A stretch of 63,510 bases of DNA, filler included, from Psammoneis japonica (lineage: Eukaryota), in the NCBI GenBank assembly GCA_008632985.1. It is 3 parts of 3 records of this genome, joined end to end, with 100 filler letters (N's around TTAATTAATTAA, not from the genome) between each part and the next. Parts side by side here need not be neighbours in the genome. Positions count along the whole stretch, not along the records: positions 29,655 to 58,341 come from QPGO01000404.1; 2 more parts are not named here. The stretch is one strand, 5' to 3'. Below, in pieces: positions 10,568-62,623 of this stretch. The position numbers were made by a program, and so were the translations under genes. Positions within the stretch are counted from its first letter, which is position 1. The number at the start of each line of letters is the position of its first letter. The notes under the pieces were generated by a model, which was not told the DNA's origin, ran no database searches, and was given only the letters and a program-made list of their open reading frames with translations.

Positions 10568-10640
10568 CCTAAAACTACCCCGATCCAATGGCTCCGTCAA
10601 CCCTGGGGCCCAAAAAAGTATCTACACTTTATCCTACATC

Positions 10641-15000: not shown

Positions 15001-16437
15001 CACCAGAGGCAGCCTGCCACTGATGTGTTCTTCCTGTCTGAGCAAAAAAGAAATTCCATCCAAAGTCAGCAGCATCTGAAAAAAGCTGACAAAGGCTCAG
15101 ATGTTCATGCCAAAATGATGCACAGGCAAAGGGAGTGCAGTGCCATGCAGCCTGTAAGAATTGCAAGGTGAAACAACACATCTTTGTGCAAGGCAACCAG
15201 GTCCTCAAGCTCATCCACCTGTTTCACCCATTGCCCTGCACACTGCCAGGACCATGCGGTGCTCAAGCCAATGGTGTGAGCCAAAGTGCAGAGTCTAGCA
15301 GCACCAAGTGTCCATGTCTGTCCAACCCACTGTGGTTGTCTTCCATGCTGCAAAGAACTGCGTTCTTGCTTCTGGCACTCTTTCAAATGCAGTTGCATGT
15401 TTTTTGTTGCCAGAGTTGAAAAGAAAGCCACACACATCACAAGCACTCAATGCAACAACTCGTTGACAGCATGTCACAGGCAGCAGGACTGACTGGCTCT
15501 GATTTTTTTGCCCGCTTGTCTGTCTGTCTCAATGCCAACCACACTTGGGCTCTTTTCTCCTGCTTGCTTTGGGAGGAAGAAATCCATTGTTGGCATGGCT
15601 TCATTTGCACTGTCATTGCTGCTTGCAGATGAAGATGACAGCATGAAGTCACCTCAAATTCTCTGATTCTTGGGAGCACAACAGTGTGCGTGCAAGCTGC
15701 TGAAGTGAAACATCATTGCAACAGTGTGGTGTTGTTGCCCCCTGCTCTCCATCTTTGCCACACTGGATGCAGGTGGAAAAAAGTTGAGTGGGCAAGTGGC
15801 TGCACAGCAAGAGTTGCACAGTGACACATTGTGGCCCAGTTGAAGCCAATGATTTAGAGTTTGTGAAAATGCCAAATGCACAAACAAGGGTTGGGGACAC
15901 CTTGTTTTGGTCTGTGACTCCGGCACAGCACCAGAAAATGAACAACAGCCAGCACAGCATGTGCAGCTGTGTTGTGTTTGCACCAGTGTGGATTTCTTGC
16001 AAGTGCCATCAAGTGGGTTTCAGCACCAACATTTGTGTCAGTTAAAAGTGCAGAAATTCTGGCTTGAGGCTGTTGCTGAAGACAGAGTTGCTGCTGCTGT
16101 GGCAGCACTCTTTGCCAACATCCAAAAGATGCTGTGGCCTCACTGCCATTTGCTCCAATGCAGCAAATCAAGAAATCCCACATTGGGTGCATTTCTTTCT
16201 CCTGGGCAAGTGTAAGAAGTGCTCACCTTGCTTTGCACCAGCACTCTTGAGCAGCAGACTGGGGCATGCCAAGTGCCAGCAACCATGCCCCAATGACAAC
16301 AAAAGAAAACACTCAATTTTCTCCAAAGCACAAGGCACTTGACATGGGTGCTGCTGACTGTCCCAGCTGATCTCTCAATCCAGAAGCACAGAAAGGCACC
16401 AAGCTCAAAACTCACAGGTGCCCTGCAAGAATGTGAA

Positions 16438-17005
16438 NNNNNNNNNNNNNNNNNNNNNNNNNNNNNNNNNNNNNNNNNNNNNNNNNNNNNNNNNNNNNNN
16501 NNNNNNNNNNNNNNNNNNNNNNNNNNNNNNNNNNNNNNNNNNNNNNNNNNNNNNNNNNNNNNNNNNNNNNNNNNNNNNNNNNNNNNNNNNNNNNNNNNNN
16601 NNNNNNNNNNNNNNNNNNNNNNNNNNNNNNNNNNNNNNNNNNNNNNNNNNNNNNNNNNNNNNNNNNNNNNNNNNNNNNNNNNNNNNNNNNNNNNNNNNNN
16701 NNNNNNNNNNNNNNNNNNNNNNNNNNNNNNNNNNNNNNNNNNNNNNNNNNNNNNNNNNNNNNNNNNNNNNNNNNNNNNNNNNNNNNNNNNNNNNNNNNNN
16801 NNNNNNNNNNNNNNNNNNNNNNNNNNNNNNNNNNNNNNNNNNNNNNNNNNNNNNNNNNNNNNNNNNNNNNNNNNNNNNNNNNNNNNNNNNNNNNNNNNNN
16901 NNNNNNNNNNNNNNNNNNNNNNNNNNNNNNNNNNNNNNNNNNNNNNNNNNNNNNNNNNNNNNNNNNNNNNNNNNNNNNNNNNNNNNNNNNNNNNNNNNNN
17001 NNNNN
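16438..17005. other. Assembly gap (N run)
   Basis: Ns. Confidence 1.
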
Positions 17006-20000
17006 AAGACACTTCATCTGTGTGTCACCCAAACATCAGCTCTCTAACATGCCAAACTTTTCACAGGGAACACATTGTGGTGTCCAGAGTCAAACATCCA
17101 ACCGACACAAACAACAACGCAGTGGTTGTGTGAAAAACAGCAAAGCAACAGCTTTGTGCCCATCAAATCTTCAACAACACAACTTCTGGGCTTGTTGCAA
17201 ATCACTTCTCTCTGTGCAGATGGTGATGCTTCAAAGCTGCGACAGTTTTTGGAGGAAACCTGTGTTGCAAAAACCCTTCATTTGAGCTGCAAACACAAGT
17301 TGATGATTGCCAGCTGCACCACAGCTGGTGGACACATTGATGTTGTCTGCAGTGCAATCCTTGCAGGGAAGAAAAATGCACAAGAAGTGTTTTCTGAGCC
17401 TTTCTTTGGGAGTCTGGCTGGACAACAACCACCAGTTGTTGACAACCTGCACTGAGCTGCACATTGTAGAACATTTTCTTGTGGCAACTTGCATGCTTTG
17501 CTGGGCTTTAGACTCTGAACAGCCTTGACTGCTTCTGGGTGCTGCCCTGCTTTTAAAATTGCACTGGCCTGTTCCCACAAACAGCATTTTGATGTTGACT
17601 GGCTGCTGTCCAAGTTCAAAAACCAAGAGGCTCTTCTTCTCCTGTTTTGTTGTCATCTGCCACAGAGTGCTCCTTGGCTTCTTCTGCATCAAGCACTTGC
17701 ACTTTGTCTGCTTCTTGACAAAATCTTCTGAAGTTCTTGACAAGAATCTTTCTGAAGTTCTTCTTGTTTCTTCAATTTCCCAACCTGCTGTTGGCTCAGC
17801 AGCACTCAAATGTTTGAGCATTGTTTTTTGGCTTTTTCAACAACAGATCTTGTTTTTTGACATGCCAAGACCCAGAAGGTCATGCCTTGTTCTGCTGCAA
17901 GAGCTCAGCCATTGTGCCCATTTTCACACTCCCAGCCACACAAGTGAAGGGGAAAGCCATGCAGCCAAGAATCTTTGGAGCATGTCAAGGGGTCAATCTG
18001 TTTCAACTGCCTTGTTGCCATGAGACGGTTGGTGTCATCACAAATCAACTTTGCTTCAAATCATGCAGTGCAGCATTTTTTTCTGAAGCTGAGGAGCTCA
18101 AGTAAGAAGACCAGCACCACAACCCTCTTGCACATTGTCAAGTGACTGGCACTGCAGTTTGTTGAAAGACATTTTGCAGAAATTGCAAGGCTGGCACATG
18201 TCTGTGAAAATGGAGCTGTGCAAACAAGGAGCTGTGTGAACTCTTTCATTGGCCCATGTTTTGCATTGCACAACATGATCATCTCTGGGGAGTGCATCAG
18301 CTGCGACAGCAGAGAAGGCAGGCAGCAGGTGACAGAGGGCAGGGTTGCAGAATTTTTCTTGCACATGTCTTGTGTGCCATTTTGCACATGCAGCACATTT
18401 CTTGCCAAAGCAGGCATTGCTGTTTGGACAAAAAATTCCATGCAAAAACATCTTGCTTTCTCTTCCTGAAGCAAAACAGTGACCCCATTTCTGGGTGACC
18501 CCAAAGCCATTGCACAAAATCTCACACAAAACAAACACCAGATTTTGAACACAACTTCAAAAAACAACACACCGCAGCACCACTGCAATTGCTTTTGTTG
18601 TTTGCAGTTTGTCATTTCCTTGTTGGGCTCACCTCTGCACCAGAAGGGCAGACAACTCAAAGCAGTGCCATTGGGTGCACAGTGGACCAGCTTGAGCTGC
18701 TTGCCAGCACATGACAAGCCTGGCAGCAATGCCCCAACTTGGTGCAAGGAAGTTTGGAGTCAGCAAGCATCAACTCAAACTCAAACATTGGTTTGGATGA
18801 GCACAACACTGGCAACATTGCAAGTCAGTGTCTCCATTGTTGCACCAGCAATGTTGTCAGTGGACATTTTGAGCACTGAACAGGCATTGTTGCCAGTGGC
18901 TGTCTTGAGCATTGTGCTGGCAACATTGTTGGCGGTTGCCTCAATGGTGCTGCATGTTGTGCTGTCATTGTCATTGTGGTGGGTGCCTTGAGCATCACAA
19001 ACAGCAGTGTTGCTGACCAATTGAGCACATGGTTGTCAGGCAGTTGCTCCACCTTTGGCATGGATGCATGCGGGGTTTGTGGCCCCTTGTGAAGATCAAT
19101 GCCAAAAGTCCCAAGAACAATGTGAGTCATCATTGGCTTGTTTGGAGCATGGATGGTGCAATCAGGCAGCACAGCCAGCCTCACCATCACAATGCAGAGC
19201 TCTCTGATTTGACTCCCTTGAAAACCAGTGGTTGGATCAAGAAGTTGCCCAGCGTTCCACTGAGCAGACCCCCATTTGAAAGGATCTGTTGCACCTTTTC
19301 TGGGTGCTTTGTAGAGAATGTGCAAAGAGCAGCCATCTTGTTCTATGATGCACAATTAACTTTTCTGATGAGGGACAATGTGCCAACCTGCAGTGCTGCA
19401 GTTTGGAGGGTGTCAGTGCTCTGAGACAAGACAACAGCAGGTCTTGCTGGTGCTGATCTGGTTGCCACGACACCACCAGAGGGGATTCTCATTTTCCCCA
19501 ATTTTTAGAAATGCTGGTGTGAGCGGCAGGGGTGTGTTGGAACATCTGGATCACAGGGACCACAAGAAACCTGGGTTCTCTGAGGAAAAGATGCTTTAGC
19601 TCCAAAATGTGGTGAACCAAGTGAAGCCACTGTTTGCTGAAGATTTTTCTCTGTTGCCAACCTTCCATCACCATTTTTGTCTCACACTTTGGAGTGAATC
19701 ATTTGGCTCACTTGGCTCATTTGATTTGTCACCTGCTGCTGTTGTCATTTTTGAGTTTGGAGTTTGTGCTGACAACTTCAGGGCAACCTGACAAGTGCCA
19801 CAGGAAGCCCAGCAGGGCCCCCTTTTGGCAACATCAATTTTCTGGTTCGATGTCACCTGGAGGTTGTCAGTGCAAACTTTAAACTCACAAAATGACAACA
19901 ACAGCTGTCCAGTGATGATGCTGAACAACATGTCAAGTGACAAACCAAATTGCTCACTCTAAAAAAGGAGGTGAAAGCAGAGGCAAGGGGTTGGCGACAG

Positions 20001-21459
20001 AGGAAATTCCCTGCCAGAGACCAGTCACTTGAGTCAACCACATCAGGAGTCAAAGCATCTTTTCCTCAATGGGCCCAGTGCAGGTTCTTTGCAATCCCTG
20101 TCCCCGTGACACAGGTGTTCCAACATTTTTTGCTGAACAGCTTAACAAAGCCCACTTGCCCCACTTTTGCTCACCTGAAAAGTGCTTGCATGTGCTTGAA
20201 GAAACCTCCTGTGCAAAGCAGGTTGATTGTGCTTTTTGCTGAAATGACATGAGGCAGGTGGGAGTGATGCACAGACTGCACTGCATTCTTGGGTGGAAAT
20301 CCAGCAGCTGCAAGCAATGAATCTACTTGATTTTTCTTGCAAAATCACCAAAGTCCACCAGCAAGCATCTTGAGCCTTGCCTTGGGTGATGGCATCATTT
20401 CAGTCCTTTCATGATCTCATGTGATGGGCTGCTTGGCAAAGAAGCCAAGGCAGCACTCTGGTTGACAGCTGCATGGCTCTGGTGAGCAAGCAGCAGAAGC
20501 CACCCTCTGAAGCATGTGGTTTTGCAAATGCAAGCACAAGCACTGCAGTTGTCAAAGCCACTCACATGTGCCTCTGAGGGTCCCACACATGCCCTCATCC
20601 CAGCTCAGCTCCTGGCACCCAAACAGGGAGCCGCTCTGCCCCTCTACAAGAATTGCCTCGCCAAGTCAAAAAATGACAAAAGCACACAGGTTTCTGCATG
20701 AATTTGGCACAAAACGAGTGCAAAGCTGCCCTCTGGGCACCACAGAAAAAAACCAGCACCTTTGATCACTTCATTGTTGCTGCACTCTTCTTTTCATCAT
20801 TCAACTGAGCTGTTGTTGCCATGACATTGCATGCCTCCACATCATCTGTCAGTGCTGAGAGATTGCGCTGCCAGAAACAACTCAACTTTCATTGGCTGCT
20901 GTTCAGTGCCCTCAAGGGGAGGTGACACTGGGCTTGAAGGTGGAACATGGCAAAACTGTCAGCATCATGCTGCCATCACCAAGTGAGTGCAACATGACTC
21001 CAGCTCTTCTTGGAGCAAAAGAGTTGATGCCCATGAAGGAAAAACCAAAACAAAAAGTGGCAAACAAACAGCTCAGTCAATGTGACCACTTGTTGAGTGG
21101 CCAACCAGTGGCAACAGTCACAGCAGCTCTTCTTGTCAAGCTTGGAAGCTCAATTTGTCCTCATCACATTGTCTTCTCTTCAAAAGTGAAGCTGAGAGAT
21201 TGCTGGAGCTTGAAGATCTTGAGTTTTGTGGCAAGAGAAGAAGCAAATTTGCTTTTGGCAGAAGGCACTCCAGTCATTCAACATGTGAGACTGCCATGAG
21301 ATTTGGCCACTGGCACTGCACAGGAAGCCTGGTGGGATTTTCTTTTGGCGACATTGACTTGCCAGCTCAACATTCACTCTAAAGAGTTGTTTGCTCATGT
21401 TGAGTGCACACCTGTCCATCAGTCCATCAGAAGATCATAAGATCATTGATGTCTGCACC

Positions 21460-23080
21460 ATGAGCAACAAAGAACATGGGAGGTTTGGAAAAGACCATGA
21501 TCAACACAAGGGTCATGGTGGAAAAGGCAACAAGAGCCACACCAAGAGCAAGAAGTCCTTCAAGCATGAAATGAAGTTTTCCATCCTTCAACCTGAACAG
21601 CAACATGTGCAATGCAGCACGCAAAGTGTCAAAGAGAAGATCAGCAGATGCACACAGAAGGAGTTTAAACAGGGCAAATGTGTGGCAAGGTCCCCAGAGG
21701 ACATGACGCATCCTGACTTTATGGCAGAAAAGCCAAAATTGAAACAGCCAGAGATCACACCCAATGAAGATGACTCCACATGCAAGGCTGACCCAAAGGA
21801 CATGGAACACAAGAACAAACAGTGTGAGTGCAAGCATCATGCAGAATCCAAAGATTGCTGTGCCAAGCTGAAATGGTTTGAAGAGAACAAATCAAAGGCA
21901 TTTGCCATGATTGTGGATGATCAACATCTGTTCTGTGCATTTCCCTGAAGAACACACTGCAGGTGAGGCAACAAGAGAATGAGTCCATTGCAGATTGCCT
22001 GTCAAAAGATTCAAGAACCAACAAGACTCCACCAGAGATGGTCTGGGTGCTGGCAAGATGCTAAATGGGTTCATTGAGAACACCAAGGAGCACAAGACAA
22101 GTGGCACTGGCAAGCAGGCTGAGCTGAAGAAGATGGCATTTGAGGCCTGGACTGCTTTCATGTTCATCAAGAACAGCAACGGCCATTGCTGCAAGACATT
22201 GAAGCAAAGTTTTGTGAGAGACTGTGCAGTCTGGGAAATGATGCATGCCCAAAAGACCTGGACAGAGCAATGGATGCATTGCTCAATCATGAGTGGGGCA
22301 ACAAGCAGAAATGTGCCAAGAATCCTGACCATTGTGACAATGAGAATGGTGAGGACAAGAATGGGAACAAGGGCAAGATCCAGAGCCATGCCCAGAAGGG
22401 TGACACACAAGGCAAGACAATGTGTCACTGTTGCAGCAAGGAAGACCACAAGTCCCCAGATTGCCAACACAAGGACAAGGCAGCTGCCAATGACTGTTTC
22501 AAAAAGACCAGAAGGAAACCAGATCTGAGAGGGCAGAGTCATGCACTGACAAGAGATGGCAATGATGACCACTCTTTGGTGGACAGTGATGTGAGCATCA
22601 ATGCCACCAGATTGACATGTTCAATCTGGAGCAAGGGAGCTGCTTGGCATGGGTCACAACTGGTCAATGAGTGACCAGAGACAAGCATGAGCCAGACCAG
22701 CATGGGCATTGAGGCTGATGAGATGGTCCTTGACAACTGCTCTGCCCTTGGCATGGCAGCAAGCTGGAGATTGGCACACAATGTGTGACTGGCAAAGATC
22801 AAGATTGGCCCATCCACAAACACAAGAGTGAACACCCTGGACAAGGACTGCACTGTGCCAGGTTGGGGCAACATGAAGCTGGGGTCAAAACCCACAACAG
22901 CAAACATCCTGAGTCTAAAGGATGTGAAGGCCAAGTGCCACATGATGACATGCTGCAAGAACCAAGTGGTGGAGGTGCTCCAGCTGCTGGACAAGAAAAC
23001 TGGCAAACAAGTCACAGCATTTAAAGCAAATGACATTGGACTGCTCTTGTGCACGCCACCTTTGGCCACAATGGCTGCGG
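21460..23080 (+). pseudogene. Heavily mutated Copia (CoDi-like) gag-protease relic
   Basis: Translations give CSLGNDACPKDLDRAMDALLNHEW (cf. YSLGNDQYPK..HxW of diatom Copia gag), zinc knuckle CHCCSKEDHKSPDC, and protease-like MVLDNCSAL. Confidence 0.75.
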
Positions 23081-25199
23081 CAGAAAGAGATGCACGAATT
23101 CAAATGGGATGTGCATGGCACATTGGTTGTGCACTTCCTCAGAATCTGCAGCATCAGCAACCACAAGTGAGTGCAGTCCCTTGGGTGTCACCACAACATG
23201 CTGCTGGGAGCACAGCATGCATTGGCGCCCATGTTCCATGTGGTGCCAACTGAAATGCAGCATCACCAACAGGGGTGAGGCAAACTGTCCCTTGCCATGT
23301 CACCCACAAGCACAGGTGTTGCCATCCCAAAGCTCCGGCGGTCTCATTGCCATGACCAGGCAAGCAGCAATGTGGTGCATGACTTGTGTGATGCCCTCGT
23401 TGGCATTGTCTTGGGGGTGTGACAGTGCATTGTGTGTGCCACAGGCATGTCATGACTCGACGTCGCCATGACTCACCCATGAAGGGCAGCCGGGTTGTGT
23501 TGGAGCTGTCCCTGTGATGGGGCTGCAAAGTCTGCCATGGAATCTGCACAGGCCCCATGGCAGCCATGGGTCATTTGCTCCAGCATTTTTATGATGATCC
23601 TGGCAATTGTGTGTGACCAGTGGCGGTGGTGGTCAATCTGAGGTGCTGGCTGTGCTTTCAGAGGTTGTTGCACTCCTTGCTGTCCTCCCACTGGAGGCAC
23701 CACATTTTTTTTTCACTGGTGCCTGAGGCGGTGGCAGCATGTTGCCCACTGGCAGAGGTTGCTGTGCACTGCCAGCAGTGCAGCATCATTTTGACCTTGC
23801 GAATTTGCTTTCTGTCCTGGCGGAGGCTGTCCTGCCTCTGCATTTGGTGCTGCTTGGTCACTCATCTTCCTGCAAGTGAAGCACACAGTGCCAGTGCAAT
23901 GGCAAAGGCATCCTCAGTGCATCAACAGCAATGGAACTGTCCAGCTGGTTGTTGTTGCTTTGCTCCTCTTTGGAATGAGAGGAAGCAACACAAGCACTTT
24001 GCTCGACAACTTGCACAAGAAGCGCCGCGTTCAAATGGTTTGGCAGTTGGAATGACTCCAACGGTCGGAGGGTCATTTCACCTTTGTTGAACTTTGCGAG
24101 GTTGGTGCAATGGACATCAAAGTGTCAACCAACTGTTGTGACTGAAATCGATTCCTTGAGGTCATGGTCTGCCTGTGACTCGCAAAGCACGGGAAAAACA
24201 CCACGAGTGAGATTTCCCACACGATTTTCTGTTTAAATTTTGCCCCAGAAATCTGCCCAGNCCCCTGTGCTGCATTTGTTTTCTTGTTGTGGGCAGGACA
24301 AGGGCAGGAGTCTCTAGCTAGATGGCAGAGAGAGTCAGGTCATGTCCGTCACTCTCTACCGGCAGGGCCCTGCACTCTGGCACCGGCATTTAGAGGGCAA
24401 CAACATCCACAGCACCGGCATGCTTTCTTGCACCGCATCTGCCGGCACTCGCACAGTGCTCTCTACTCTACTCTCTGCCAGCAGCTGGGAGCACCGGTGC
24501 CGGTGCGGCAGCAGCCACCGGCAGAGCAGAGCTCCGGCACTGTGCTCTTAGTCCGCGCCGTCACTGAAGACCAGTGACCAGTTTGTGTCTGATCTTAAAT
24601 GCCTTTTTGTAACATGCTTCATCACATGTGAAGATGTCCTGCCATTCCTGCAGCACTTGCACCTGAATCTGAACAAAAAGCATTGCTGTGACAGTTCACT
24701 GCCATGCCACCAACAGTGCTCTCCATTTTTCTGATGCAACAAATGAGTGTAGCCAGAAAACATGCATCAGTGTGTGATGCCAAGCATCACATGAAATGTG
24801 TTGAGCACTGAATGACAATGCAAGAGACAACAACATGTCTTGCTTTAACCACGAAACAAAAGCTTGCTTGCATCTCTTTTGCCCCCCTTCCACAATTCCA
24901 AGCACAGCTCACAGTTGGAATGTCTCACACAGCAACAACAACAGCAACCACATGAATGCAGTCAAATTGTTGCAGAGGAAAAATTGGCAATGACAGCAAC
25001 TACAACATTGAAATAAAAAAAAATGCCACTGGAAAATGGTGGAGGACATCACCTGCCATGGTGGCTCTGCAACAATGGCAAATGCAACAATGCTGTTGTG
25101 GCTGTTGGCATCACCACCCTTGTGGTGGTGGTGTGGGTGCACATCATGAAAAACATGTGCATCTGCACACCATGCAAAAAATTCCAATCTAATCTATTC

Positions 25200-26110
25200 T
25201 GGCAAACAAAGAGTTAAGATGGCACACAGTTCTCACACCACCAATTTCCAGTTGCCAGAATTGTCCACAACTGCAGAACTTTGTGTGAAGTTCACCACAC
25301 ACACAGCTGATCATTGGGCAAACCTGACATGGTTGTTGGATGAGACATGCTAGAGTGGCCAAAGGTTAACAACAAGATGCCATTTAAATGCACAGAAGCC
25401 ACTGCAGAAACCTCCATCTGTTTTCAAGATCCAGAGCCACTGTTTTCAGAAAGCAATGGAATTTTAAAGATCTCAGATGCCAAGCATGTGCCAGCATGCC
25501 TTGAGGACACAATGCAGGGAGCAACAGGACTTGACAGCAACTGGAAAGTGAAGCTGCTTAGTTTGTTGAAAAAGTGTGAGTCCTTGTTTGATGGCATGTC
25601 AGGTGAATGGAAAGGGGGTCCTCACCACACCCAGCTTAAAGAGGATCATGCTGAGCCATGTTGCTGACAACAGACATCCTTGCAAAGCCCCAAGGGGATG
25701 TGAAGCGATGCCAAGAGAAAGGAAGTGGAGCGCATTTGTGAAATTCTCATCACTGGATGCACAACCAACTGTGTCTGCAGTGTGCAGCTCCATCATTTTC
25801 CTTGCCAAAGCAAGATTTTGTGCTGGCATGGTTTCTTGGTGATTTCTGGGAGCTCAACAATGGGGTCAAAAGATTGACCCACCCAATTCCTCACATCCAG
25901 GACATGCTGCATGAGCTTGAAGGCTTTGTGTGGTGGGTGACATCATCGGATCTCCTCAATGCTGGATGCTGCCACATTTGACTTGTTGATGGTGGCAGCC
26001 AAAAGATGTGCATGCTTGTCTGCCCATGAGGAAGGTGGTGCAAGACACGCAGGTCCTGCAAATGGGCTCATGCAATGACTCACCCAACATTCTCTAGGAA
26101 AAGATGTCAT
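25200..26110 (+). pseudogene. Gypsy protease/RT relic, same clade as 54828-58341
   Basis: ETSICFQDPEPL..ILKISDAKHVPACLEDTMQGATG and DFWELNNGVKRLTHPIPHIQDML align to ORFs 57897-58304 and 57322-57618. Confidence 0.85.
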
Positions 26111-26639
26111 GGCCATGGAAAGCTTAGAGAGCTCATTTTGGTGTGCAAGTGCAACCCCATGTGGGCTCCATGCATGCATGCGCCATGCACAATTCTGTGA
26201 TGCACCATGCAGACATCATGAAGAGACATGAGGAGTGAAGATGCTGCACTCTACAATGGTGCAACAGCAGAGGCCACCATTTGAAGTTCCCACCACTTCA
26301 TGGCAACTGCAGCATTGTCTCTGCATGACAATGTCCCACAAGTGTGCATGTGCTGCCATCAGAGTGTTTGGACCACATGCTGAGACTTGTTTTGTGGCAA
26401 TTGAAAAAGCAGATGTTGCCAACATGGAAGTTGTTTTTAGGCAGGGTGCCCCATGGATTCAAAGCACAATCTCTGCCAGTCTTCCAAAATGACCAAATCA
26501 TGCATCAGGACCATCTGAAGATCAACGCTTGCTTGGCAGTTCTGAGGCACTCATGGGGGTGGTGCAGCAGCCAAGCTCACAAACCACCATTTAATGTGCA
26601 CCTTGGCAGTGTGCCAATGACAGGAACATTGTGCTGCCC

Positions 26640-27400
26640 AGTGCATCTCCAAATTGCTGATGTGTGCCAGAACATGACATGTTCATCAACAATCATTTGT
26701 GCTGTCTTGTCAAGAAAGACACACTGTGGCAAGGCTGCAAGAAAGTGCTGACAACTCTGCCACATCATCATCACAAAAAAGTGCTGTTGGCTGTCTCATG
26801 CAAGCTTGAACAACAATGTGATGAACTCCTGCAGTTTGAGCAAAACAGGCTGCTCTCCTTCACACCAGCCATCAATGCTCATCTGCAGTCTTGTCACATC
26901 ATGAAAGACACGCTGTTGTGGCACAGCTGTGGGAAAGTGTTGACATGCCACCACCATGTTGTCATTGTGTTGGCACCATTGGTCTCTCCTTCAAATTCGA
27001 ACAAGCCAGTGACTCCCACAATTTGAGCAAAAGTGGTTGTTCTCTTTTTTGTGCCAGCCATCAGCACTCATCTGTGTTGTGAAGAAAGACACCCTGCAAC
27101 AAGGCTGCAGAAAAGTGCTTGCAACACCATCATGAAAGTGGTGCCAGTCTCATGCAAGTTTGAACAAAATGATGAGCTCCTGCAGTTTGAGCAAAATGGG
27201 CCATTCTGATGCACCAGCCATTGGCACTCATCTGTGTTGTCATGTCAATGACAACATTGTGCCATTGCATGGCAGCAGAAAAGTGCTGACAGTTCTGCCA
27301 CCACACTGTCATCATGTTCATCCATTGGCCTCTCATGCAAATTTGGGAGAGCCAATGACTCCTGCACATCAACCATCAGTGCTCATCTGCATTGTTGCAT
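26640..27400. repeat. Degenerate ~160-190-bp tandem repeat, 4-5 copies
   Basis: tcat(c/t)tg..(t)tgt...aaagtg(c/t)t(g) recurs at ~26692, 26879, 27068, 27228 and 27383. Confidence 0.7.
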
Positions 27401-27419
27401 CAAGAAAAATGTGATGTGG

Positions 27420-28620
27420 CATGGCAGTGCACAATCTGCCACAGATTGCACATGTCTGTGTCAGCACACCATCTTGTGGATGCAAAGTGTTGCTGTCACT
27501 CATGCTGACAACACTGGCAGGACCTGCATGACAACCAGTTCTGTGTTTTGTCTTTTTGCCCTTGTTTGACAACAAGTGCCAACTGCCCTGTGGTGTGTTG
27601 GCACTCCTTTTGTTCATGCTTTTGCATTTGTCATTTGAGTGCATCAGCTTCAGCTTTCTGCATCAGGTGTGCCACCACTTGGCACAAAGGGCAATGGACA
27701 GAAGAGCTGCATCATGTCAAAGGCCAATTGTTTGGGATTTGCCCATGCAGTGGCATGTGATGCAGCATGCATGACAGAAGCCATGGCTGAAAGGATGCCC
27801 TTCCCCTTGTCCAACTCCATGTCCCACACTGAAAATGAGCACACCACATTTCCAAGTGTCTGTTGTGTGCACTTTGCAGAAGTGCTTGCCTGTGGATTTG
27901 GATGCACCTGCACATGGCCAGGGAGGTTTGCTTCATGACATTTGCCCTGGTGACTCTGTGACACCTGCATCATGTTTGGCAGACACTTCCACAATCTTGG
28001 CACTTGAATCTTCCTGGTGCCTGGGCAGTCACAGTTGCTGTTCACTGTTGCAGAGTGTCTTTTCCAAATCACTCAATTTGGTGGGACCCCATGTCACATC
28101 CACACACAAGGTCTCCTGCAGGATTCTTTTGGCTGTTTTTTGGACTTCTGACAGCTTCTTGCAATGCTGTGTCTGGCATTTCATCTCCTGGCATTGTTTG
28201 CACTTGACACATGCAGAATGCACTGCAGCACTCATGATGCCAGGCCAGTGGAAGTGATGGGCAGTGGATGTTTCTGCACATGTCTTGCCAGGGCAGTGCA
28301 GCTGCTCATGCACCACTCAGCTGGTGGAGGCATTGTCAACACCTCCAGGCAGCACAACAATTTTGTCTTGATGGCATCCTGGCTGTTGTTGTGTGCCTCC
28401 CCCCACAAAGCACACAGGTGAAGGGTGAACTGGAGTGCAGTGCATTTGGCAAACATGCAGCTGCTCTTTTTGCAGCTGCACTTTTTGATGTCAGCTGCAC
28501 ATTCTGGTCTCCATGCGGGTTTGTGCACAACTTCTTGCACTGATGTTGCCCTTCTCAGATGGTGTCATGTTGGCTCCAACAAGCCCATTTTGTTCACATT
28601 TGCCAACTGCAGCATGACAA
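27420..28620 (-). pseudogene. Gypsy integrase relic, same clade as 52325-57330
   Basis: HCPGKTCAETSTAHHFHWPG..HSACVKCKQCQ matches CHPGETRTEISIAQHFYWPS..HSTCVKCDRCQ; TLGNVVCSFSVWDMELD also matches. Confidence 0.85.
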
Positions 28621-29145
28621 GCAACATTCTTCAGCAGAAAATTGTGTGTGTCAAAGCCTTGTGGCTCACACACTGGTTGTTGTTTCTCTCAAATTTCTGT
28701 CATCTCAGAAACCTTTTTGCACAGGTTCCAGCTCAAGTTCTGCAGGACTCAGAAGAAACTGTTGACAATCTGCATGTCACATCTCTAGACTGCTTCTGTC
28801 CATGCCAGTGGGTTCTCTTCAACACTGCTTCTTTTTCCCTCACTCTGAAAGCACTGCCTCTGTTGTGGATCCCTTTCTAGCGCAAGCATGAGTCATCCTC
28901 CAGTGTCCATTGATCATTCATTTGCTGTGCCTGTTGGCTTTTCTGGGCAAGATCTGGCATTGTTTCTGCATGAAGCCACTGACTGTCAGCTTGTCATGAC
29001 TCTGGATGACTGCTTCCATCCACACCAGTCAGTCTTCAATGCCACCTCTTTTCTTTGCTGTTCAATCAAGTCCTTTGCTCTTCAGGGTAAAAGTGTTGCC
29101 TCTGTTGCAGTCCTTGTGAGCATGAATGTGAGTTCACAGAAAACA

Positions 29146-29554
29146 AAGATGACTGGGTGGAAGAAAACAATGACTCCTTGCTGCTGTCTAAACAGCAGAT
29201 GAGTGCTCATGCAGACAATGTGTTGTGGGAGCCCAAAGACGGGTGTCATGATGTGGGTGCCACTGTCACAATTCTCATGAGCCAAGTGGCTCAAAAGCAA
29301 ACTGCATTGTGTGTCATGTGCAGAACTGAAAGCACACACATTTTTGTGCAACAAACTAAAATCTTGTTCAAATCCTGTCACTCCTCAGTTTGCTTGAGGA
29401 GTCCACAGCAGCAACAGATTCAAAGTCAGATTGACTAAAGGCCTCAGGATCAAAGTCCAAAACATGAGAGGATGGAGGAGGTTCCAACCCTGGGAGCAAC
29501 CCCAGTGTTTGCTGAGGATGTCAGCGGGTTGCAGAACCTTCAAGGAAGTCGAAC
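29146..29554 (-). mobile_element. 3' end of a Copia family C copy: RNase H tail, PPT, and LTR 29380-~29146
   Basis: Homologous to ~45640-46030; LTR starts TGACAGGATTTGAACAAG. Confidence 0.88.
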
Positions 29555-50699: not shown

Positions 50700-52325
50700 C
50701 AGGCATCCCCACCGTAGCCGCCGATGATGCTACTTTCCTGCATCTGTAGGCTGTCCGTAGCGACGCTGATCCCGCAGAAGCGCGTGCTAGAAAACGTGAC
50801 TCCTGGCATGAGTCCTACGATGGGCTACAGGAGATCCATACGACTGAGACCGGCGTGACTGGCCATCGTGCACGTGACTCACCTTGCATGAAGGGTACGC
50901 GTAGGATGTACGCAGTGCCGAGTCAACAGGAATCATTCGGGTCCTCAGAGTCATCATGCAGAAATTGTGCAGGAGAGCACTAAAAATAATTATGATCAGT
51001 CTGTCCATCCATCCATGTGCGAATGTCAACTTCTCGGGAAATCAATTGAAATGCTGTCTGATTGACGGCATTTTGATTCACATGGTGAAGGCCAATGCCG
51101 TCAATCAGATGGCATTTCAATTCAGTTCCCGAAAAGTCATTAGCTCTAATCACTCTCTTGTATGACATTGTGTACATTTCTACACGATTTTGTGTTTTTC
51201 CTTATGTAAAACACCAATTATGACCCACGTGACATTTTCGAATGCTTCCTGTTGTGATTGGTTCCGCGGGAGGACTGAAGCTCCGTATGTCCTACTATCG
51301 CGCATGCACGTGCTCTACATAAAATAATCTCATAATTTTCGTGCAACACAGAAAACCTCCACCTAAGTACTTGTGCCCTATTCCTGCATAGGTCACAGTA
51401 ACATTGCTCCCAGTAAGTGCAAGAATGTCTTGATTGGTTAACCATGAAAGTCAGACACATCGCGCACACTACATGCATGCGACAGGCGGTTATTCTGCCG
51501 ATAGCATTTCAACGTCCAGAGAAACGTGAGCTTAAGGAGAATGAGAATCAGACATACAAGCTCCGTATGAACCCGAACGATCCCCGGACAGTCCTACGTA
51601 TGAACTTGCCATTGGCCCTGCCTACTTCTCGGCGCAGACGCCTGAGGAACTGCTCCTTTTCTTAAAGGATTATGACCCTGTGTGCATTGGTCAAGGCATT
51701 GCAACAGGACCCAGAAAGTTTTTACTCACGCGAAGGCTGTTGGAAGTCGAAGCCCTCACTGCCTTTGAGAATGCAGCGGCTGCCCAGAACACAGAGACAT
51801 TGGTGTCTTTCGTGCATTGTGTGGCAGCCGTTGTTAAAAGCATTTTCCCAGAAAGGGCTGCACTGACTCAGAAGCGCTACATAAGGCGTTTTATGAGAAA
51901 GCCGTTAACTGTGAAAATTCGTGAGTATGTTGCCCACGTTGTGGAAATGAACGCGTACATCACGAAATTTCCACCTGTCGAAGATGGTGGACCTGCACCT
52001 CAACCACTTTCAGATGATGAGCTGACAGATGTCATTGAACATGGCACTCCACGTTCTTGGCAGCATGAGCTGAAAATCCAGGGATGGAATCCCTTGGCCC
52101 ACACTACAGCAGAACTTGTGGCATTCTGTGAATGTGTCGAGGAGATAGAAGCGTCAGAAAAGCCGATCGCCGCTGACCCTCAGAAAAATGACCCGATTCC
52201 ACGGAAAAGGCAGGGTAGTCGTAAATGCCGTAACTCGCATGATTTGACATCAGAAGCAGAAAAGCGAACCGCAGTGATGTCAGATGGAAAACGTGGTCAC
52301 GTGTGCATGTTACACGGCGCATTGC
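50700..52325 (+). mobile_element. Gypsy 5' region and frameshifted gag (~51477-52325)
   Basis: TYKLRMNPNDP, RRLLEVEALTAF, IFPERAALTQKRYIRRFMRKP, PRSWQHELKIQGW and CMLHG knuckle start. Confidence 0.85.
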
Positions 52326-54827
52326 CCTGTGTATGTACTAGGCGCTGAAAAGAAGATGTGTTACGACTTTGTCGTTGTGAAAATTATGAGCTAGTTTAGA
52401 GTAGAGAAAGTGGGATCGTGCGAATAGGGAATCTTGCCAAATCCCCATTCGTTCGCATTGGGATCGTATCAAATCGATCGTGCGTTCGCATTGTGGATCG
52501 TGCAAATCAAGCCATCACGCGCCATGCACGAGTGATGTCATCGTGTGGAATCACACTGCCATCGTGGGCCAGACGACAGGCTAGTGTGCTTCACACGGAT
52601 GCTCTCTTAGCATCCTTCTGGAATTGCCTGAGACCTAGAGCCACGCCCTCCTGTGGTCGTGCTTCCCAGGTACGCATTAACAACACTACGTTGCCACGTA
52701 CAAGAGGCTTATGCACGGTCTCGCCATGTTGTCCAGTGGTGAGGCACACTGCACACTCCCCCATGATCAGGGCCGTTAAGTGACAGGATGTCTTACTGGT
52801 GACAGGGTGCAATCTGCCGTAGATTGTACGTGTCTGTCAGCGCTCCGTTCTGGATACGCAACGTGCCATTGTCATATACACGGACAACTCTGGCGGGTCC
52901 TGCATAGCTGTCAGAACCGCATTTAGAGGATTGTTCCTGTTTGATAAGTGCCAATTGCCCTACGGTATATTGGTGCTCCTTGCATTTCTGATTTTCACGC
53001 TTGTTATTTAAGTGGACAAGCTTCTGTTTTCTGGTTTCTATGTACTTCCACTTAGCACGATGGGCAATAGATAAAACCGCATCGCGTCCGAAGACCAATT
53101 GCATGGGACTTGCACGCGTGGTCGTATGTGCCGTAGCTCTAATGGGCGAAGGCTACTGTGGAGAGGATGCCACTCCATGGGTCATCTTCATCCAGTTCCA
53201 TGTCCTGCACTGAAAAGGAACGTACCATGTTACCAAGTGTCTGGGGCACACGTTCCACTATGGCATTCGCCTGTGGATTCCGTTTACTTATGGGTTTCTT
53301 CAAAATCCCATAGTCATTTTTAATCATCTGGCTAAATTCTGCCATAAATTCTGTCCCACGGTCATAAACCACCTGGGTTGGCCACGGATGTCTGCACAGC
53401 CACGTTTGTTCCACGACGTTTGCTACGACGTCTGCGCGTTTCGTAGACACTTCTTTAATCTCGAACCACCCCGGTTGCTGGGTCAATCATTGTGACTGCC
53501 CATAATTGCAAAGTGTCCTTTCCGCGTCTTTGAATTTTATATGGCCCTATCATGTCTGTGCATGGAGTCTCCCATGGAATTATCTCGGCGACCTTTTCTG
53601 GTGGCTTCCCATAACGCTGCGTTCGGCGTTTTGTCTTCTGGCATCGATCGCACTTAACGCACGTAGAATGCACCGTAGACCTCATACTAGGCCAGTAGAA
53701 GTGCTGGGCAATAGATATTTCCGTACGTGTCTCACCTGGATGACACAGTGTCTCGTGGTGCCATTCAGTTAGCGGGATCTGCAATGACTGTGGTACTGCG
53801 ATTTTGTCCTTATGACAGATTAACTGTTGTGATGACCCTCCCCCACGATACGCGCAAATGGAGTAGTCGGACGAGTCCTTAGCTCGTGAGAGTAGGCGCT
53901 TGTCCTTTTGTTGTGCTTTTTGAATGTGCTTGAAGCTAACAGGCAGAGATGCATCGTCTTGCGCGTCTGCATTAAAGGCTTCATGTAAAGGATGACTCGA
54001 TGGAGTGTCTTTTACATCCGGATTGGCCTCAGAAGGCAAGCTGGGTGCTAGCCGAAGGCGACTAAGAGCGTCAGCGACTAGGTTGTGGGTGCCCTTAACA
54101 TAGCGTAATTCGGGACCGTATTCTTCGCATGCCAACCGCCAGCGCATAACGCGCTCGGTATTGAATACTTTGTACGTAAGATTTTTATGATCAGCACATA
54201 TAATTATACGATGACCAAGGAGAATCGTTTGAAATTCTTTCAACGTCTCCACAATGGCGAGTAATTCTCTCTCCGTTGTTGTATAATTTAATTGCGCACT
54301 GTTAAGCTTTCTGCTATAAAAGGCGATAGGTTTATTATCTTGGGACACAACTGCTCCCAATTGACATTTAGAGGCATCGGCATGTATCTCAAAGGGTTTA
54401 TTAAAATCAGGATGTGACAATAAAACATCATCCGATATCACCCGTTTAATGGTTTCGAACGCCTCGTCTTCGACGGACGTCCACTCCCACTTAACAGTCT
54501 CACTTACGAGTCGTGTTAGCGGAGCCAAGACTTCAGAACATCTAATCCATGTGTCACGGTAGTAGTTCACCATACCAATAAATGACCGTAGGTCGCGTTT
54601 ATTGGTTGGGGTCGTGATTCGCTTAATGGCGTCGACTTTATTGGGTGTTGGTCGTATTCCGTCTCTGTTGACCAGGTAACCCAAGTATTCTAATTGGGTT
54701 TGACAGAAGTGAGATTTAGTTGCGTTAACTTTTAGTCCTGCTTTCTGGACCCTCAATAAAACTTCTTCAAGTTTGTTGAGGTGATCTTCATGGGTGCCTT
54801 TCGTCATGACGAGAAGGTCATCTAAGT
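52325..54827 (-). mobile_element. Gypsy 3' half (RT end, RNase H, INT, PPT, LTR 52755-52325), duplicate 1
   Basis: DASK.QLGAV, FYSRKLN, ERELLAIVE, HPG..HFYWP, YDRGTEF and NPQANAIVER; PPT GGGGGAG at 52762-52756. Confidence 0.95.
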
Positions 54828-57800
54828 GCCCTATGTATGTGCCAGGCGCTGAAAAAGAAGATGTGTTACGACTTTGTCGTTGTGAAAATTATGAGCTAGT
54901 TTAGAGTAGAGAAAATGGGATCGTGTGAATAGGGAATCTTGCCAAATCCCTATTCGTTCGCATTTGGATCGTATTAAATCGATCGTGCGTTCGCATTGTG
55001 GATCGTGCGAATCAAGCCATCACGCGCCATGCACGAGTGATGTCATCGTGTGGAATCACGCTACCATCGTGGGCCAGACGATGGGCTAGTGTGCTTCACA
55101 CGGATGCTCTCTTAGCATCCTTCTGGAATTGCCCAAGACCTAGAGCCACGCCCTCCTGTGGTCGTGCTTCCCAGGTACGTGTAAACAACACCACGTTGCC
55201 ACGTACAAGAGGCTTATGCACGGTCTCGCTGTGTTGTCCAGTAGCGAGGCATGCTGCACACTCCCCCATGATCAGGGCCGTTAAGTGACAGGATGTCTTA
55301 CTGGTGACAGGGTACAATCTGTCGTAGATTGTACGCATCTATCAGCGCTCCGTTCTGGACACGCAACATGCTGTTGTCATATACACGGACAACTCTGGCG
55401 GGTCCTGCATAGCTGTCAGAACCGTATTTAGAGGATTGTTCCTGTTTGACAAGTGCCAATTGCCCTACAGTGTGTTGACACTCCTTGCGTTTCTGATTTT
55501 CATGCTTGTTGTTTAAGTGGACAAGCTTCTGCTTTCTGGTTTCTATATACTTCCACTTAGCACGATGGGCAATAGATAAAACTGCATCGCGTCCGAAGAC
55601 CAATTGCATGGGACTTGCACGCGTGGTCGTATGTACCGTAGCTCTAATAGCGAAGGCTACTGCGGAGAGGATGCCACTCCATGGGTCATCTTCGTCCAGT
55701 TCCACATCCTGCACTGAAAAGGAACGTACCATGTTACCAAGTGTCTGGTGTGCACGTTCCACTATGGCATTCACCTGTGGATTCCGTTTACTTATGGGTT
55801 TCTTCAAAATCCCATAGTCATTTTTAATCATCTGGCTAAATTCTGCCATAAATTCTGTCCCACGGTCATAAACCACCTGGGTTGGCCACGGACATCTGCA
55901 CAGCCACGTTTGTTCCACGAAGTTTGCTACGACGTCTGCGCGTTTCGTAGACACTTCTTTAATCTCGAACCACCCGGTTGCTGGGTCAATCATTGTGACT
56001 GCCCATAATTGCAAAGTGTCCTTTCCGCGTCTTTGAATTTTATATGGCCCCATCACATCTATGCATGGAGTCTCCCATGGAATTATCTCTGCAACCTTTT
56101 CTGGTAGCTTCCCATAACGCTGCGTTCGGCGTTTTGTCTTCTGGCATCGATCGCACTTAACGCACGTAGAATGCACCGTAGACCTCACACTAGGCCAATA
56201 GAAGTGCTGGGCAATAGATATTTCCGTACGTGTCTCACCTGGATGACACAGTGTCTCGTGGCACCATTCAGTTAGCGGAACCTGCAATGACTGTGGCACT
56301 ACGATTTTGTCCTTATGACAGATTAACTGTCGTGATGACCCTCCCCCACGATACGCGCGAATGGAGTAGTCGGACGAGTCCTTAGCTCGTGAGAGTAGGT
56401 GCTTGTCCTTTTGTTGTGCTTTTTGAATGTGCTTGAAGCTAACAGGCAGAGATGTCTCATCTTGCGCGTCTGCATTAAAAGCTTCATGCAAAGGATGACT
56501 CGATGGAGTGTCTTTTACATCCGGATTGGCCTCGGAAGGCAAACTGGGTGCTAGTCGAAGGCGACTAAGAGCGTCAGCGACTAGGTTATGGGTGCCCTTA
56601 ACATAGCGTAATTCGGGACCGCATTCTTCGCATATTAACCGCCAGCGCATAACGCGCTCGGCATTGAATGCTTTGTACGTAAAGATTTTTATGATCAGCA
56701 CATATAATTATACGATGACCAAGGAGAATCGTTCGAAATTCTTTCAACGTCTCCACAATGGCGAGCAATTCTCTCTCCGTTGTTGCATAATTTAATTGCG
56801 CACTATTGAGCTTTCTGCTGTAAAAGGCGATAGGTTTATTATTTTGGGATGTGACTGCTCCCAATTGATATTTAGAGGCATCGGTATGTATCTCAAAGGG
56901 TTTATTAAAATCAGGATGTGACAATAAAACATCATCCGATATCACCCGTTTAACGGTTTCGAACGCCTCGTCTTCAACGGACGTCCACTCCCACTTAACA
57001 GTCTCGCTTACGAGTCGTGTTAGCGGAGCCAAGACTTCAGAACGTCTAATCCACGTGTCGCGGTAGTAGTTCACCATACCAATAAATGACCGTAGGTCGC
57101 GTTTATTGGTTGGGGTCGCGATTCGCTTAATGGCGTCGACTTTATTAGGCATTGGTCGTATTCCGTCTCTGTTAACCAGATAACCCAAGTGTTCTAATTG
57201 GGTTTGACAGAAGTGAGATTTAGTTGCGTTAACTTTTAGTCCTGCTTTCTGGACCCTCAATAGAACTTCTTCAAGTTTGTTGAGGTGATCTTCACAGGTG
57301 CCTTTCGTCACGACGAGAAGGTCATCTAAGTACGTTCGAACGAACGAACGATAGATCTTCAAATAAGCCTGACATGCGTTCTTGGAAAATGTCTGGCGAA
57401 TTACATAATCCCATGGGCAACACCTGCATCTCATGCTTGCCCCACGGGAAGATGAGCGTGCAGAGCTTCTTGCTGTCAGTGTCCAATCGGATATGACAAT
57501 GGCCCATGTTTAAATCCAGCGATGTAGCCCACATAAAGCCTTCGAGCTTAAGTAGCACATCTTGGAGATGAGGAATCGGATAAGGCAATCGCTTGATCCG
57601 TTTATTCAGCTCTCTCAAATCATTAAATAAAGCGTACCGTTAAATCTTTCTTCGGTATGATAAATGATGGAGCTGCCCATTGGGATCGGTTAACGCGTTT
57701 GAGAACACCGATACGTGCTAGGCGTTCTACTTCTTTACGTAGCGTAGCTTCGTATGCACGAGGTGCTTTACACGGACGAGCGTGGTGTGGTTCTACACCC

Positions 57801-58341
57801 TCCTTAAGTTGGACATGGTAGGGTTCTCCCTTCCATTCCTCCTAATGTCCCATCAAATAGGGACTCATGGCGTTTCAATAGTGCCAAAAGGTCGTTTTAA
57901 TGAACTATAGAAAATCCCATTGCCCCTCGCGTCATGTCCTCGAGGCAGGCCGGCGCGCACTTAGCGTCTAAAATACGCGAAATCCGGTCGGTTTCCGAAG
58001 ATAAGGCTTCTGGATCTTGAAGATAGAAGGAGGTTTCTACCGTAGCATCTACGTGCCTCATTGGCACTTCTCCACTGACTAATGGCCACTCTATCATCTG
58101 TTTAGAGAAGACAATGTCAATGCCTTGTGTCTCCAGAATGTCACGTCCAATAATCATGTCGTACTTGCCCAACTTTCCGTTGTGTGCGTGGACGGTATGT
58201 TTAAGTTCTGCAGTTTCGGATAATTCTGGTAACCGAAATTTAACGGTGCAGTCGTTAGACGTACTGAACGAGCCTGCTACCGTAGTCCAGTTTGTCTCAG
58301 CCATTGAATGGCTTCGCAGACGTTTACAGCCATCGACTGTC
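54828..58341 (-). mobile_element. Gypsy PR-RT-RNase H-INT-PPT-LTR, duplicate 2 (extends to the gap)
   Basis: YDMIIGRD, RELNKRIKRLPYPIP, LPMGLCNSPDIFQ and TYLDDLL; RT-RH-INT order; LTR 55260-54828. Confidence 0.95.
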
Positions 58342-62047: not shown

Positions 62048-62623
62048 ATGGCCACTTGCGTTTGTAGTTTGAGCGGCGAGACGGGTTCTTCCGTATCAGG
62101 GGTGTTGAAACTTGTACAGTCAAGTGAAGATGCACCCACCACCATTGAAGGCGAGCTTCGAGGCTTGACACCGGGAAAGCACGGCATTACAGTCAATGTG
62201 TACGGCGACCTTTCTCAAGGCGCTACTACATGCGGAGAGATTTTCAACCCATTTGGTGAGAATTATATTGCGGTCTGTGCGAATCGTGCTTGTCTTCATC
62301 ATTGTGTCGTAGCTTATGATCCTTTTGTGTTTTGTTTCTGAACAGGCAAATCACACGGATCACCACAAGACGATCCGAGCAATCGCATGGTGGGTGATTT
62401 GGGAAACATTGACGCTGGATCGGATGGAAAGTGTGCCGTGTCGTTGTCGGATTCACTCGTGAAATTGTTGGGGCCCCATTCCGTCATTGGAAGGTCGATT
62501 GTCGTGTATACTTCTGCGGATGATGGTGGACGTGGCGGCCAACCGTCGTCACTTACAACCGGCAACACTGGAACACGAGTAGCTGCCGGTGTGATTGGAA
62601 TTGCCGCAGCTGCGGCGCCATGA
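62048..62623 (+). CDS. Cu/Zn superoxide dismutase-fold protein, 161 aa; exons 62048-62255 and 62346-62623; copper ligands absent
   Basis: GLTPGKHG, GD, FNPFGKSHG, VGDLGNI, GPHSVIGRSIVV, DD, TTGNTGTR and GVIG. The phase-1 intron GTGAGA..AACAG (62256-62345) restores the frame. Confidence 0.93.

Follow-up and report, generated by a model that had tools for sequence, protein, structure and literature searches.

Two head-to-tail Ty3/Gypsy copies in Psammoneis japonica and the GC-neutral loss of TpA and CpG from repeated DNA

Background

In Neurospora and other fungi, repeat-induced point mutation (RIP) converts C to T, mostly at CpA, and yields TpA and AT-rich DNA. Silenced transposons also lose CpG by decay of 5-methylcytosine (5mC), and in vertebrate genomes the observed-to-expected ratio (O/E) of CG is typically roughly 0.2. 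ADAR and APOBEC footprints in animal retroelement copies are clusters of A>G or G>A changes that originate at the RNA or cDNA stage, mark a single strand in each event and leave satellites untouched. To our knowledge, the repeat-directed DNA mutators (RIP, 5mC decay and the APOBEC footprints) all act by cytosine deamination. The subject of this analysis is a 63,510-nucleotide stretch of DNA from Psammoneis japonica (assembly GCA_008632985.1; "the window" in what follows), which contains two head-to-tail copies, A and B, of a Ty3/Gypsy retrotransposon that differ from each other almost entirely by transitions, most of them at pyrimidine-purine steps. The duplicate is the less interesting part of what it contains: the wider finding is that TA and CG are being erased from repeats at unchanged GC content.

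The process resembles RIP in being a transition-only, context-specific hypermutation of repeats and transposons that acts on DNA and on both strands. Unlike RIP, it removes TpA (by T>C and A>G), it has CpA/TpG as its sink rather than its target, and it leaves GC content unchanged. Its CpG>TpG/CpA arm (seven polarised changes, and a CG O/E of 0.10 in old copies) is like the 5mC decay of silenced transposons, which does not cover the loss of TpA and is less deep than the depletion seen here, where 1.5 kb can be without a single CG. With the ADAR and APOBEC footprints it shares transitions between related retroelement copies; in contrast to them, each copy bears hits on both strands, and the changes extend to a satellite. 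In the literature searched, with most subscription journals lying outside it, nothing was found that describes mutation of TpA to CpA/TpG directed at transposons; the matches for TpA together with transposons concerned fungal RIP.

The two Gypsy copies

A first-pass annotation described a 2.5-kb repeat pair with many TA differences in this part of the window, and the pair is as described: self-BLAST aligns positions 54827-57331 with 52323-54827 at 94.894% identity over 2507 columns (period 2504; Tandem Repeats Finder was limited to periods of at most 500), and TA in one copy stands opposite CA or TG in the other at 41 sites. Both units lie on the minus strand and encode Ty3/Gypsy pol, with Pfam matches to RVT_1, RT_RNaseH_2/RT_RNaseH, Integrase_H2C2 and rve in that order, which is the Ty3/Gypsy order of reverse transcriptase (RT), RNase H and integrase; identity to pol proteins of 1050-1100 amino acids is 60-70%. 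Copy A (52323..54827) is the 3' 2.5 kb of such an element; it begins at the YLDD motif of RT, takes in RNase H and integrase, and closes with a terminal region resembling a long terminal repeat (LTR). Its RVT_1, RT_RNaseH_2, RT_RNaseH and Integrase_H2C2 domains lie in open reading frame (ORF) 53455-54888, and it is 63-68% identical to the homologue P0121 by tblastn. Copy B (54827..57331), which BLAST and global alignment identify as the corresponding 2.5 kb of another member of the family, has its pol domains in ORFs 55298-56707 and 56598-57509. It continues upstream through 57332..58341, on the same strand, into protease and the N-terminal part of RT (tblastn to residues 64-396 of P0121), and there the scaffold end at 58341 cuts it. 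The nearest relatives among the matches listed, at up to 62% identity, are pol proteins of 1050-1100 amino acids that come from contigs of metagenomes and assemblies; for the integrase, the nearest Atlas clusters list Bacillariophyta, the phylum being known for one member only. In the clusters of eight homologues, three short members bear the JGI label 'hypothetical protein' and none has an informative name.

The last ~470 bp of each unit end in ...CA and are LTR-like, with a contig depth 3-4 times that of the interior. In copy B this non-coding 3' terminal region occupies 54827..55297, as defined by contig depth and the junction sequence; in copy A it occupies 52323..52795 (94.5% identical to 54827-55300). 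Both are on the minus strand and end ...GGGCA, and that of copy A is followed by unrelated DNA. Of an LTR pair bounded by TG...CA the window holds the 3' region alone, since the scaffold end cuts the 5' side.

The contigs come from one DNA sequencing run and were placed on the stretch at 80% likeness or more; 4693 of them fell there, and the run shares 0.36 of the stretch's words. (Two further runs of the same sample share next to no words with it, one giving no contig and the other a single contig of 165 bp; no RNA run that contains the stretch is listed.) Summed contig depth is ~5000-48000 over the element as against ~116 in the flank, with a drop from ~13800 to ~116 just below 52323. By our own estimate from this depth, the family may perhaps comprise hundreds of copies. 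One contig with zero differences spans 52000-52367 at depth 30. Copy B carries one extra base near 56681 that is absent from 1213.5 of a summed contig depth of 1792.3 (8 contigs). Two further ORFs, 51545-52348 and 39885-40871 (both on the plus strand), are gag-like, with ~30% identity to the N-terminal part of the 1497-residue Gypsy polyprotein P0142; they are remains of other Gypsy copies, and one of them, oppositely oriented, adjoins the end of copy A.

Differences between the copies

Counted from a global alignment in which each step was classed as pyrimidine-purine or other, copies A and B differ by 124 substitutions (118 transitions and 6 transversions) and 4 gap columns. Pyrimidine-purine steps, which make up ~52% of positions, hold 102 of the 118 transitions (binomial p = 2.9e-15), so that transitions in this context are far more frequent than chance would have it. 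Apart from the 41 sites already mentioned, the aligned dinucleotides include 115 at which TA, and 129 at which CG, is found in both copies; CG stands opposite CA or TG at 27 sites, CA opposite TG at 17, and CG opposite TA at none. The two strands are affected alike: TA is paired with TG 23 times and with CA 18 times, the CA/TG pairs divide 8 and 9 between the two orientations, and A>G and T>C are mixed within each copy in nearly equal numbers. A model of sister-chromatid or strand segregation for the CA/TG pairs is ruled out by this mixture of orientations. Among the run's own contigs, differences of the same kinds occur (A>G at 119 places, T>C at 134, C>T at 40 and G>A at 42, with 20 transversions).

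The CA/TG pairs, each representing a double hit, are seven-fold more numerous than a uniform rate of change predicts (17 against 2.4; p = 7e-10). This excess must reflect a class of very hot TA and CG sites, with no obvious rule of flank or position; along the 2.5-kb unit, no clustering or periodicity of hits is obvious.

The direction of change was assigned at the protein level, with 120 listed full-length pol homologues (P0121-P0240; 48-62% identical) as outgroup, and required an outgroup majority of at least 75% and a unique candidate ancestor. Among the 87 codons that differ between the copies, 37 differences are synonymous, 32 are not polarisable and 18 are polarisable. These 18 codons yield 22 changes: TA>TG (9), TA>CA (5), CG>TG (4), CG>CA (3) and a single transversion. 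None of the 22 creates TA or CG, 21 are losses of one or the other (21/21, binomial p = 1e-6), and copies A and B have 11 each. The proposal that the direction is one of TA loss is upheld by the 14 polarised TA>TG and TA>CA changes and the absence of TA gains among them, but it tells only part of the story: because 7 of the 22 changes are CG>TG or CG>CA, loss of CpG is a second arm of the process. The signature of CpG decay is also present in the 27 sites with CG opposite TG or CA and in nine CG losses in a satellite described below.

All six peptide pairs quoted in the first-pass annotation are present in the minus-strand translations of copies A and B. The ancestral residue is Tyr in 120 of 120 outgroup proteins at WHHETL/WCHETL, at CRHPWP/CRCPWP and at EYLGY/EHLGY, which bears out a loss of Tyr at the last of these and the derivation of His/Cys pairs from TAY at the other two. 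Each such pair would go back to one Tyr codon, mutated on one strand in the first copy and on the other strand in the second. That derivation does not carry over to the first variable site of KEHQYT/KECQHT, where relatives mostly have His (90 of 120; Tyr in 29), the second site being Tyr in 117. A Tyr ancestor for EEYGP/EECGP has a divided outgroup (Tyr 67, Phe 53), and SKCQL/SKYQL (Thr 58, Tyr 27) has no decidable direction and drops out as an instance of TA loss. A second, earlier outgroup, 80 of 120 listed shorter homologues, gives matching residues at the key sites.

Twelve of the 17 CA/TG sites fall in coding sequence; their ancestor is clearly TA at 4, TA weakly favoured at 4, clearly CG at 1, and the outgroup is uninformative at 3. 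The interpretation of these pairs as hits of TA on opposite strands is accordingly right for several of them, but not for 52867/55372, which had a CG ancestor (Gly in 119 of 120 relatives), nor for the non-coding pair 52577/55082, where the contig family majority has CG.

Other repeats and a non-repeat control

The region 12300..29500, which is made up of old Gypsy debris, is a desert of TA and CG: CG O/E is 0.10, TA O/E is 0.06 and CA/TG O/E is ~1.9, at a GC content of 0.48. In 16.6 kb there are 72 TA and 98 CG as against 3927 CA and TG taken together, and the 1.5 kb from 27001 to 28500 contain no TA and no CG at all. The sequence is complex (it is not a microsatellite) and the edges of the desert are sharp; a less depleted island at ~23.0-25.7 kb is where surviving CG and TA cluster. 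Two Gypsy remnants can still be identified, one of protease and RT at 25222..26038 on the plus strand (35-48% identity to P0121, P0123 and P0142 by tblastn) and one of integrase at 27444..28487 on the minus strand (28% identity to residues 702-1069 of P0121, E 2e-14). In these remnants conserved Tyr is now His or Cys and some conserved Arg is now Cys; for example, GYYHIKL has become GCCHI*L, and WYHEYLCHPGETRTE has become VVHEQLHCPGKTCAE.

The desert looks like the end state of the decay that is seen in the young copies A and B. The young pair gives losses per lineage of 0.15 per TA and 0.095 per CG, with background transitions at 0.0067 per base, and by our own arithmetic the removal of TpA and CpG in a young copy proceeds at ~17 times the background rate per base. 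From these rates the predicted equilibrium ratios to CA+TG are 0.044 for TA and 0.070 for CG, and the desert, at 0.018 and 0.025, is of the same order and somewhat lower.

Every other repeat pair in the window likewise has its transitions at pyrimidine-purine steps, with CG opposite TA 0-1 times per pair. A tandem satellite with a 330-bp unit (10637..12168, ~4.6 units) serves as a control that is not a retroelement. When four of its units are polarised by majority rule, TA is lost 7 times and gained 0 times, CG is lost 9 times and gained 3 times, and there are 21 other changes. A 212-bp tandem repeat with 3 units (9924-10567) is weaker in this respect, with 7 losses and 2 gains. Because the satellite shows the same losses, the process acts on DNA and not only by way of reverse transcription.

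Non-repeat DNA is represented by a Cu/Zn superoxide dismutase (SOD) gene (62048..62622, plus strand; Pfam Sod_Cu), which has two exons separated by an 89-nucleotide GT-AG intron at 62256-62344. Its best named matches are in Trieres chinensis (67%) and Nitzschia inconspicua (62%), and it is the sole clear host gene of the window; an Atlas search with a SOD exon yielded no taxon. CG O/E is 0.91-1.22 over the gene, its intron and an 888-bp flank (0.96-1.22 in the gene, 0.91 in the flank); TA O/E is 0.57-0.62 in exon 1, intron and flank (0.60 in the flank) and 0.29 in exon 2. Six short metagenome relatives of the element have TA O/E of 0.64-1.17, none of them being depleted. These comparisons point to a depletion that is tied to repeats.

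The bases around TpA affect its loss. In the young pair, the mutated T has a purine on its 5' side at 30 of 41 changed sites but at 99 of 230 retained ones (p = 5.6e-4); read on the other strand, the same context is a mutated A in T-A-Y. Across 13 non-overlapping repeat pairs the loss is 0.32 for TAC, 0.28 for TAT, 0.20 for TAG and 0.18 for TAA, a weak effect (p = 0.04), and at CpG these 13 pairs show no preference for flanking bases (p = 0.72). The desert retains 72 TA: YTAR makes up 47 of these and RTAY not one (p = 7e-13 and 1.5e-9, respectively, against 25%), which is independent support for an R-T-A/T-A-Y preference.

Nested insertion or tandem duplication

The junction at 54827 reads ...GGGCA|CTTAGATGAC, with 1 bp of microhomology, and each unit ends ...ACATACAYAGGGCA on the element strand. 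Past the end of copy B lies CTTAGATGACC, that is, the L-D-D codons of the RT YLDD motif with the Tyr codon replaced by GCA; past the end of copy A lies unrelated DNA. Eleven family contigs have loose, mutually disagreeing flanks exactly at 54826, and among the contigs listed none bridges the junction. Because the contig flanks diverge at 54826 and depth collapses below 52323, positions 54827 and 52323 are taken as termini of the element. A terminal CA joined to foreign DNA is the product of integration, and the arrangement is for this reason probably a nested insertion, in which copy B entered the RT gene of copy A and points the same way as its target, as far as one can tell from the sequence. 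Copy A is probably the older, interrupted target element. The RT-RNase H-integrase-LTR part shared by the nested copies would then mimic a 2.5-kb tandem repeat, and the part of copy A upstream of the insertion would sit beyond the 5' LTR of copy B, past the scaffold end at 58341. Nested LTR-retrotransposon insertions occur in grass genomes, and the join of an LTR's terminal CA to the interior of another element is the same here. What differs from the grass examples is that host and insert are of one family and one orientation, so as to imitate a tandem duplication, and that the 5' side is off the scaffold.

On the other hand, the first-pass annotation had assumed that 2.5 kb within a single Gypsy copy were duplicated locally and that the two halves then lost TA independently in situ. 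That copies A and B have 11 derived changes each favours such a duplication, or at any rate fits it as well, and so do the non-consensus residues that the copies share at 9 of 257 highly conserved columns, along with several shared differences from the family majority. Nevertheless a duplication of this sort is unlikely. Its breakpoint would have to coincide with the element's own terminal ...GGGCA, where the contigs diverge, and abut the YLDD codons, a coincidence that is improbable for a random breakpoint and automatic for integration; microhomology at the junction amounts to 1 bp only; and the scaffold ends upstream, so that nothing contradicts a nested insertion. Synonymous differences, moreover, account for 37 of 77 single-difference codons as against the 34% expected from random loss of TA and CG (p = 0.008), an excess which implies that selection was still acting on the lineages during part of their divergence. 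In either arrangement, the changes at residues on which all 120 relatives agree most likely postdate insertion, because they would disable the element.

Possible mechanisms

What a mechanism has to account for is a loss directed at two dinucleotides, on both strands, in a satellite as well as in retroelements, and with a gene and its flank left undepleted. On balance we favour the reading that the locus consists of two head-to-tail copies of one high-copy Ty3/Gypsy family, B nested in A, eroded by strand-symmetric, repeat-associated transitions at the DNA level. The process would turn the self-complementary steps TpA and CpG into CpA/TpG on either strand and, given time, would remove nearly all TA and CG at constant GC, as in the desert.

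The CpG arm is likely, by analogy, to be deamination of 5mC in methylated repeats. For the TpA arm, the cause might be another modification or deamination of a base, one that targets TpA within silenced repeats; it would need a lesion that causes T to be read as C, or A to be read as G, specifically at TpA. Oxidised thymine of the 5-hydroxymethyluracil or 5-formyluracil type (5hmU, 5fU), mispairing with G, is put forward tentatively as that lesion. It is preferred on an analogy of geometry, in that the 5-methylpyrimidine would occupy the 5' position of a self-complementary step in TpA as in CpG. Deamination of adenine to hypoxanthine at T-A-Y is the next candidate, and a more doubtful one; known adenosine deaminases prefer a 5' U. 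A dedicated repeat-directed TpA pathway, thymine-modifying or adenine-deaminating, that would operate beside CpG methylation as a GC-neutral analogue of RIP is conceivable, although we would put it at somewhat less than an even chance.

Some background exists for both arms. Diatom transposons are methylated by DNMT5a, and diatoms carry an RID-related DNMT4 of unknown function (PMC9998398). Dinoflagellate 5hmU is concentrated on repeats, where it silences transposons, and a preference for TA and TC was reported in older nearest-neighbour work (PMC11572971). The likeness lies in a modified thymine on repeats that is tied to transposon silencing (PMC11572971, PMC11071213); the lineage is a different one, the passages considered from these sources describe no mutational footprint, and the process in Psammoneis is known from its mutational footprint alone.

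Alternative explanations

Neighbour-dependent bias throughout the genome would make TpA and CpG hypermutable everywhere, with selection retaining them in genes and old transposons standing at the neutral equilibrium. It is in keeping with a TA O/E that stays under 1 throughout the window, in the SOD gene (0.29-0.62) and in an intact Copia ORF (0.26) as well, and with a predicted equilibrium of the same order as the desert. It is at odds with the sharp edges of the desert and with the SOD intron and the 888-bp non-coding flank, where CG O/E of 0.91-1.22 and TA O/E of ~0.6 compare with 0.10 and 0.06 in the desert, and is rather improbable. An artefact, whether a contig that is chimeric or merges haplotypes in a family of hundreds of members, or base calls that are systematically wrong at modified bases, is very unlikely. 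The very high copy number (4693 contigs and the summed depth given above), the modest share of the stretch's words found in the run (0.36), and a scaffold that breaks inside the element, with no listed contig bridging 54827, would all make such an artefact easier. But the run's own contigs contain the same kinds of difference, invariant residues are changed in a coherent direction, copies A and B differ by no more than 4 gap columns, the pattern recurs in the desert, in the satellite and in other repeats, and a mosaic contig would still carry real differences among copies of the family.

Editing of RNA from A to I (with T at -1), fixed by retrotransposition and combined with a cytosine deaminase acting on cDNA, would have the two copies descend from differently edited RNAs. 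If the copies are nested they are indeed independent products of retrotransposition, and a 5' T next to A>G is like the flanking base that known adenosine deaminases favour. Hyperediting of the ADAR type, however, marks one strand per copy and retrotranscribed sequences only, whereas A>G and T>C are intermixed in each copy in nearly equal numbers and the satellite, which has no reverse-transcription step, has lost TA 7 times and gained it 0 times. Where all 120 relatives agree on a residue, the changes would inactivate the element and are probably post-insertion, and a desert almost emptied of TA and CG implies that the process went on acting on DNA already in place; this explanation is accordingly highly improbable. 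As to RIP of the fungal type, transitions do dominate (118 to 6) in repeated DNA, and diatoms do carry the RID-related DNMT4 (PMC9998398). Yet RIP should produce C>T at CpA, an excess of TpA and AT enrichment, and here TpA is destroyed (TA O/E 0.06 at a GC content of 0.48 in the desert) and CA/TG>TA accounts for 0 of 22 polarised changes, so that its probability is negligible.

Certain observations nonetheless weigh against the reading favoured here, beyond the 11:11 balance of derived changes, which a true duplication fits too. For the excess of CA/TG pairs, the only account to offer is that these are hot sites. The outgroup is a protein-level one at 48-62% identity and polarises 18 of the 87 differing codons, all of them non-synonymous. 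The contig-derived family majority is usable at 40 of 355 variable places and provides no clean outgroup. It conflicts with the protein outgroup at 54132/56635, where it implies Thr and the relatives have Ile, and because recurrent hits produce such conflicts the evidence from the family majority is blurred. The non-repeat comparison comprises only ~1.9 kb, on a different scaffold piece, with TA O/E there already low (0.29-0.62), and the term "repeat-associated" rests on that little sequence. Finally, mapping of 5hmU at base resolution in Breviolum found no sequence preference or motif (PMC11071213), and a literature search for 5hmU with diatoms returned, among the matches listed, dinoflagellates and Symbiodinium only and no diatom.

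Other features of the window

The window is a concatenation of at least three scaffold pieces, and order across the spacers that separate them has no biological meaning. The spacers are artificial and identical (29555-29654 and 58342-58441), each consisting of 44 N, TTAATTAATTAA and 44 N. A Copia-type ORF of 765 residues, still open, lies at 339-2633 on the minus strand (RVT_2, E 8.6e-35), and its TA O/E of 0.26 beside a CG O/E of 0.85 indicates that depletion of TA can outrun that of CG even in an open frame; copies of its first ~100 codons are repeated at 2753-3809. ORFs at 59093-60440 on the plus strand have weak matches to AAA_30 and PIF1-like helicases (TA O/E 0.21, CG O/E 0.78) and are possibly, to judge by these matches, a Helitron-type remnant. 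All six frames together contain 123 ORFs of at least 110 residues, and Pfam searches of 109 further ORFs matched almost nothing; DNA that is free of TA is also free of TAA and TAG stops and so yields spurious long ORFs. A scan of the window for tRNA genes found none, and a search of it for the spliced-leader motif gave 0 matches. With that result, the ordinary GT-AG intron of the SOD gene and its best named matches in diatoms, a dinoflagellate host was set aside; judged by sequence, the host is probably a diatom or something close to one, the integrase clusters and the SOD matches being leads and not proof.

Conclusions

Removal of TpA by T>C and A>G together with loss of CpG, nearly complete in old copies, would be new as a fate of repeated DNA and, if true, would point to a novel modification or deaminase that acts on TpA in DNA. 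The end state would drop the stops TAA and TAG along with all Tyr codons and the CGN codons of Arg, and gene prediction may be misled by TA-free DNA, in which every frame has long ORFs. The compositional signature (CA+TG O/E near 2, TA and CG near 0, GC unchanged) could serve for finding and dating dead transposons. A process of this kind would be invisible to scans based on GC content or on RIP indices, and may for that reason be widespread but overlooked in diatoms and other algae.

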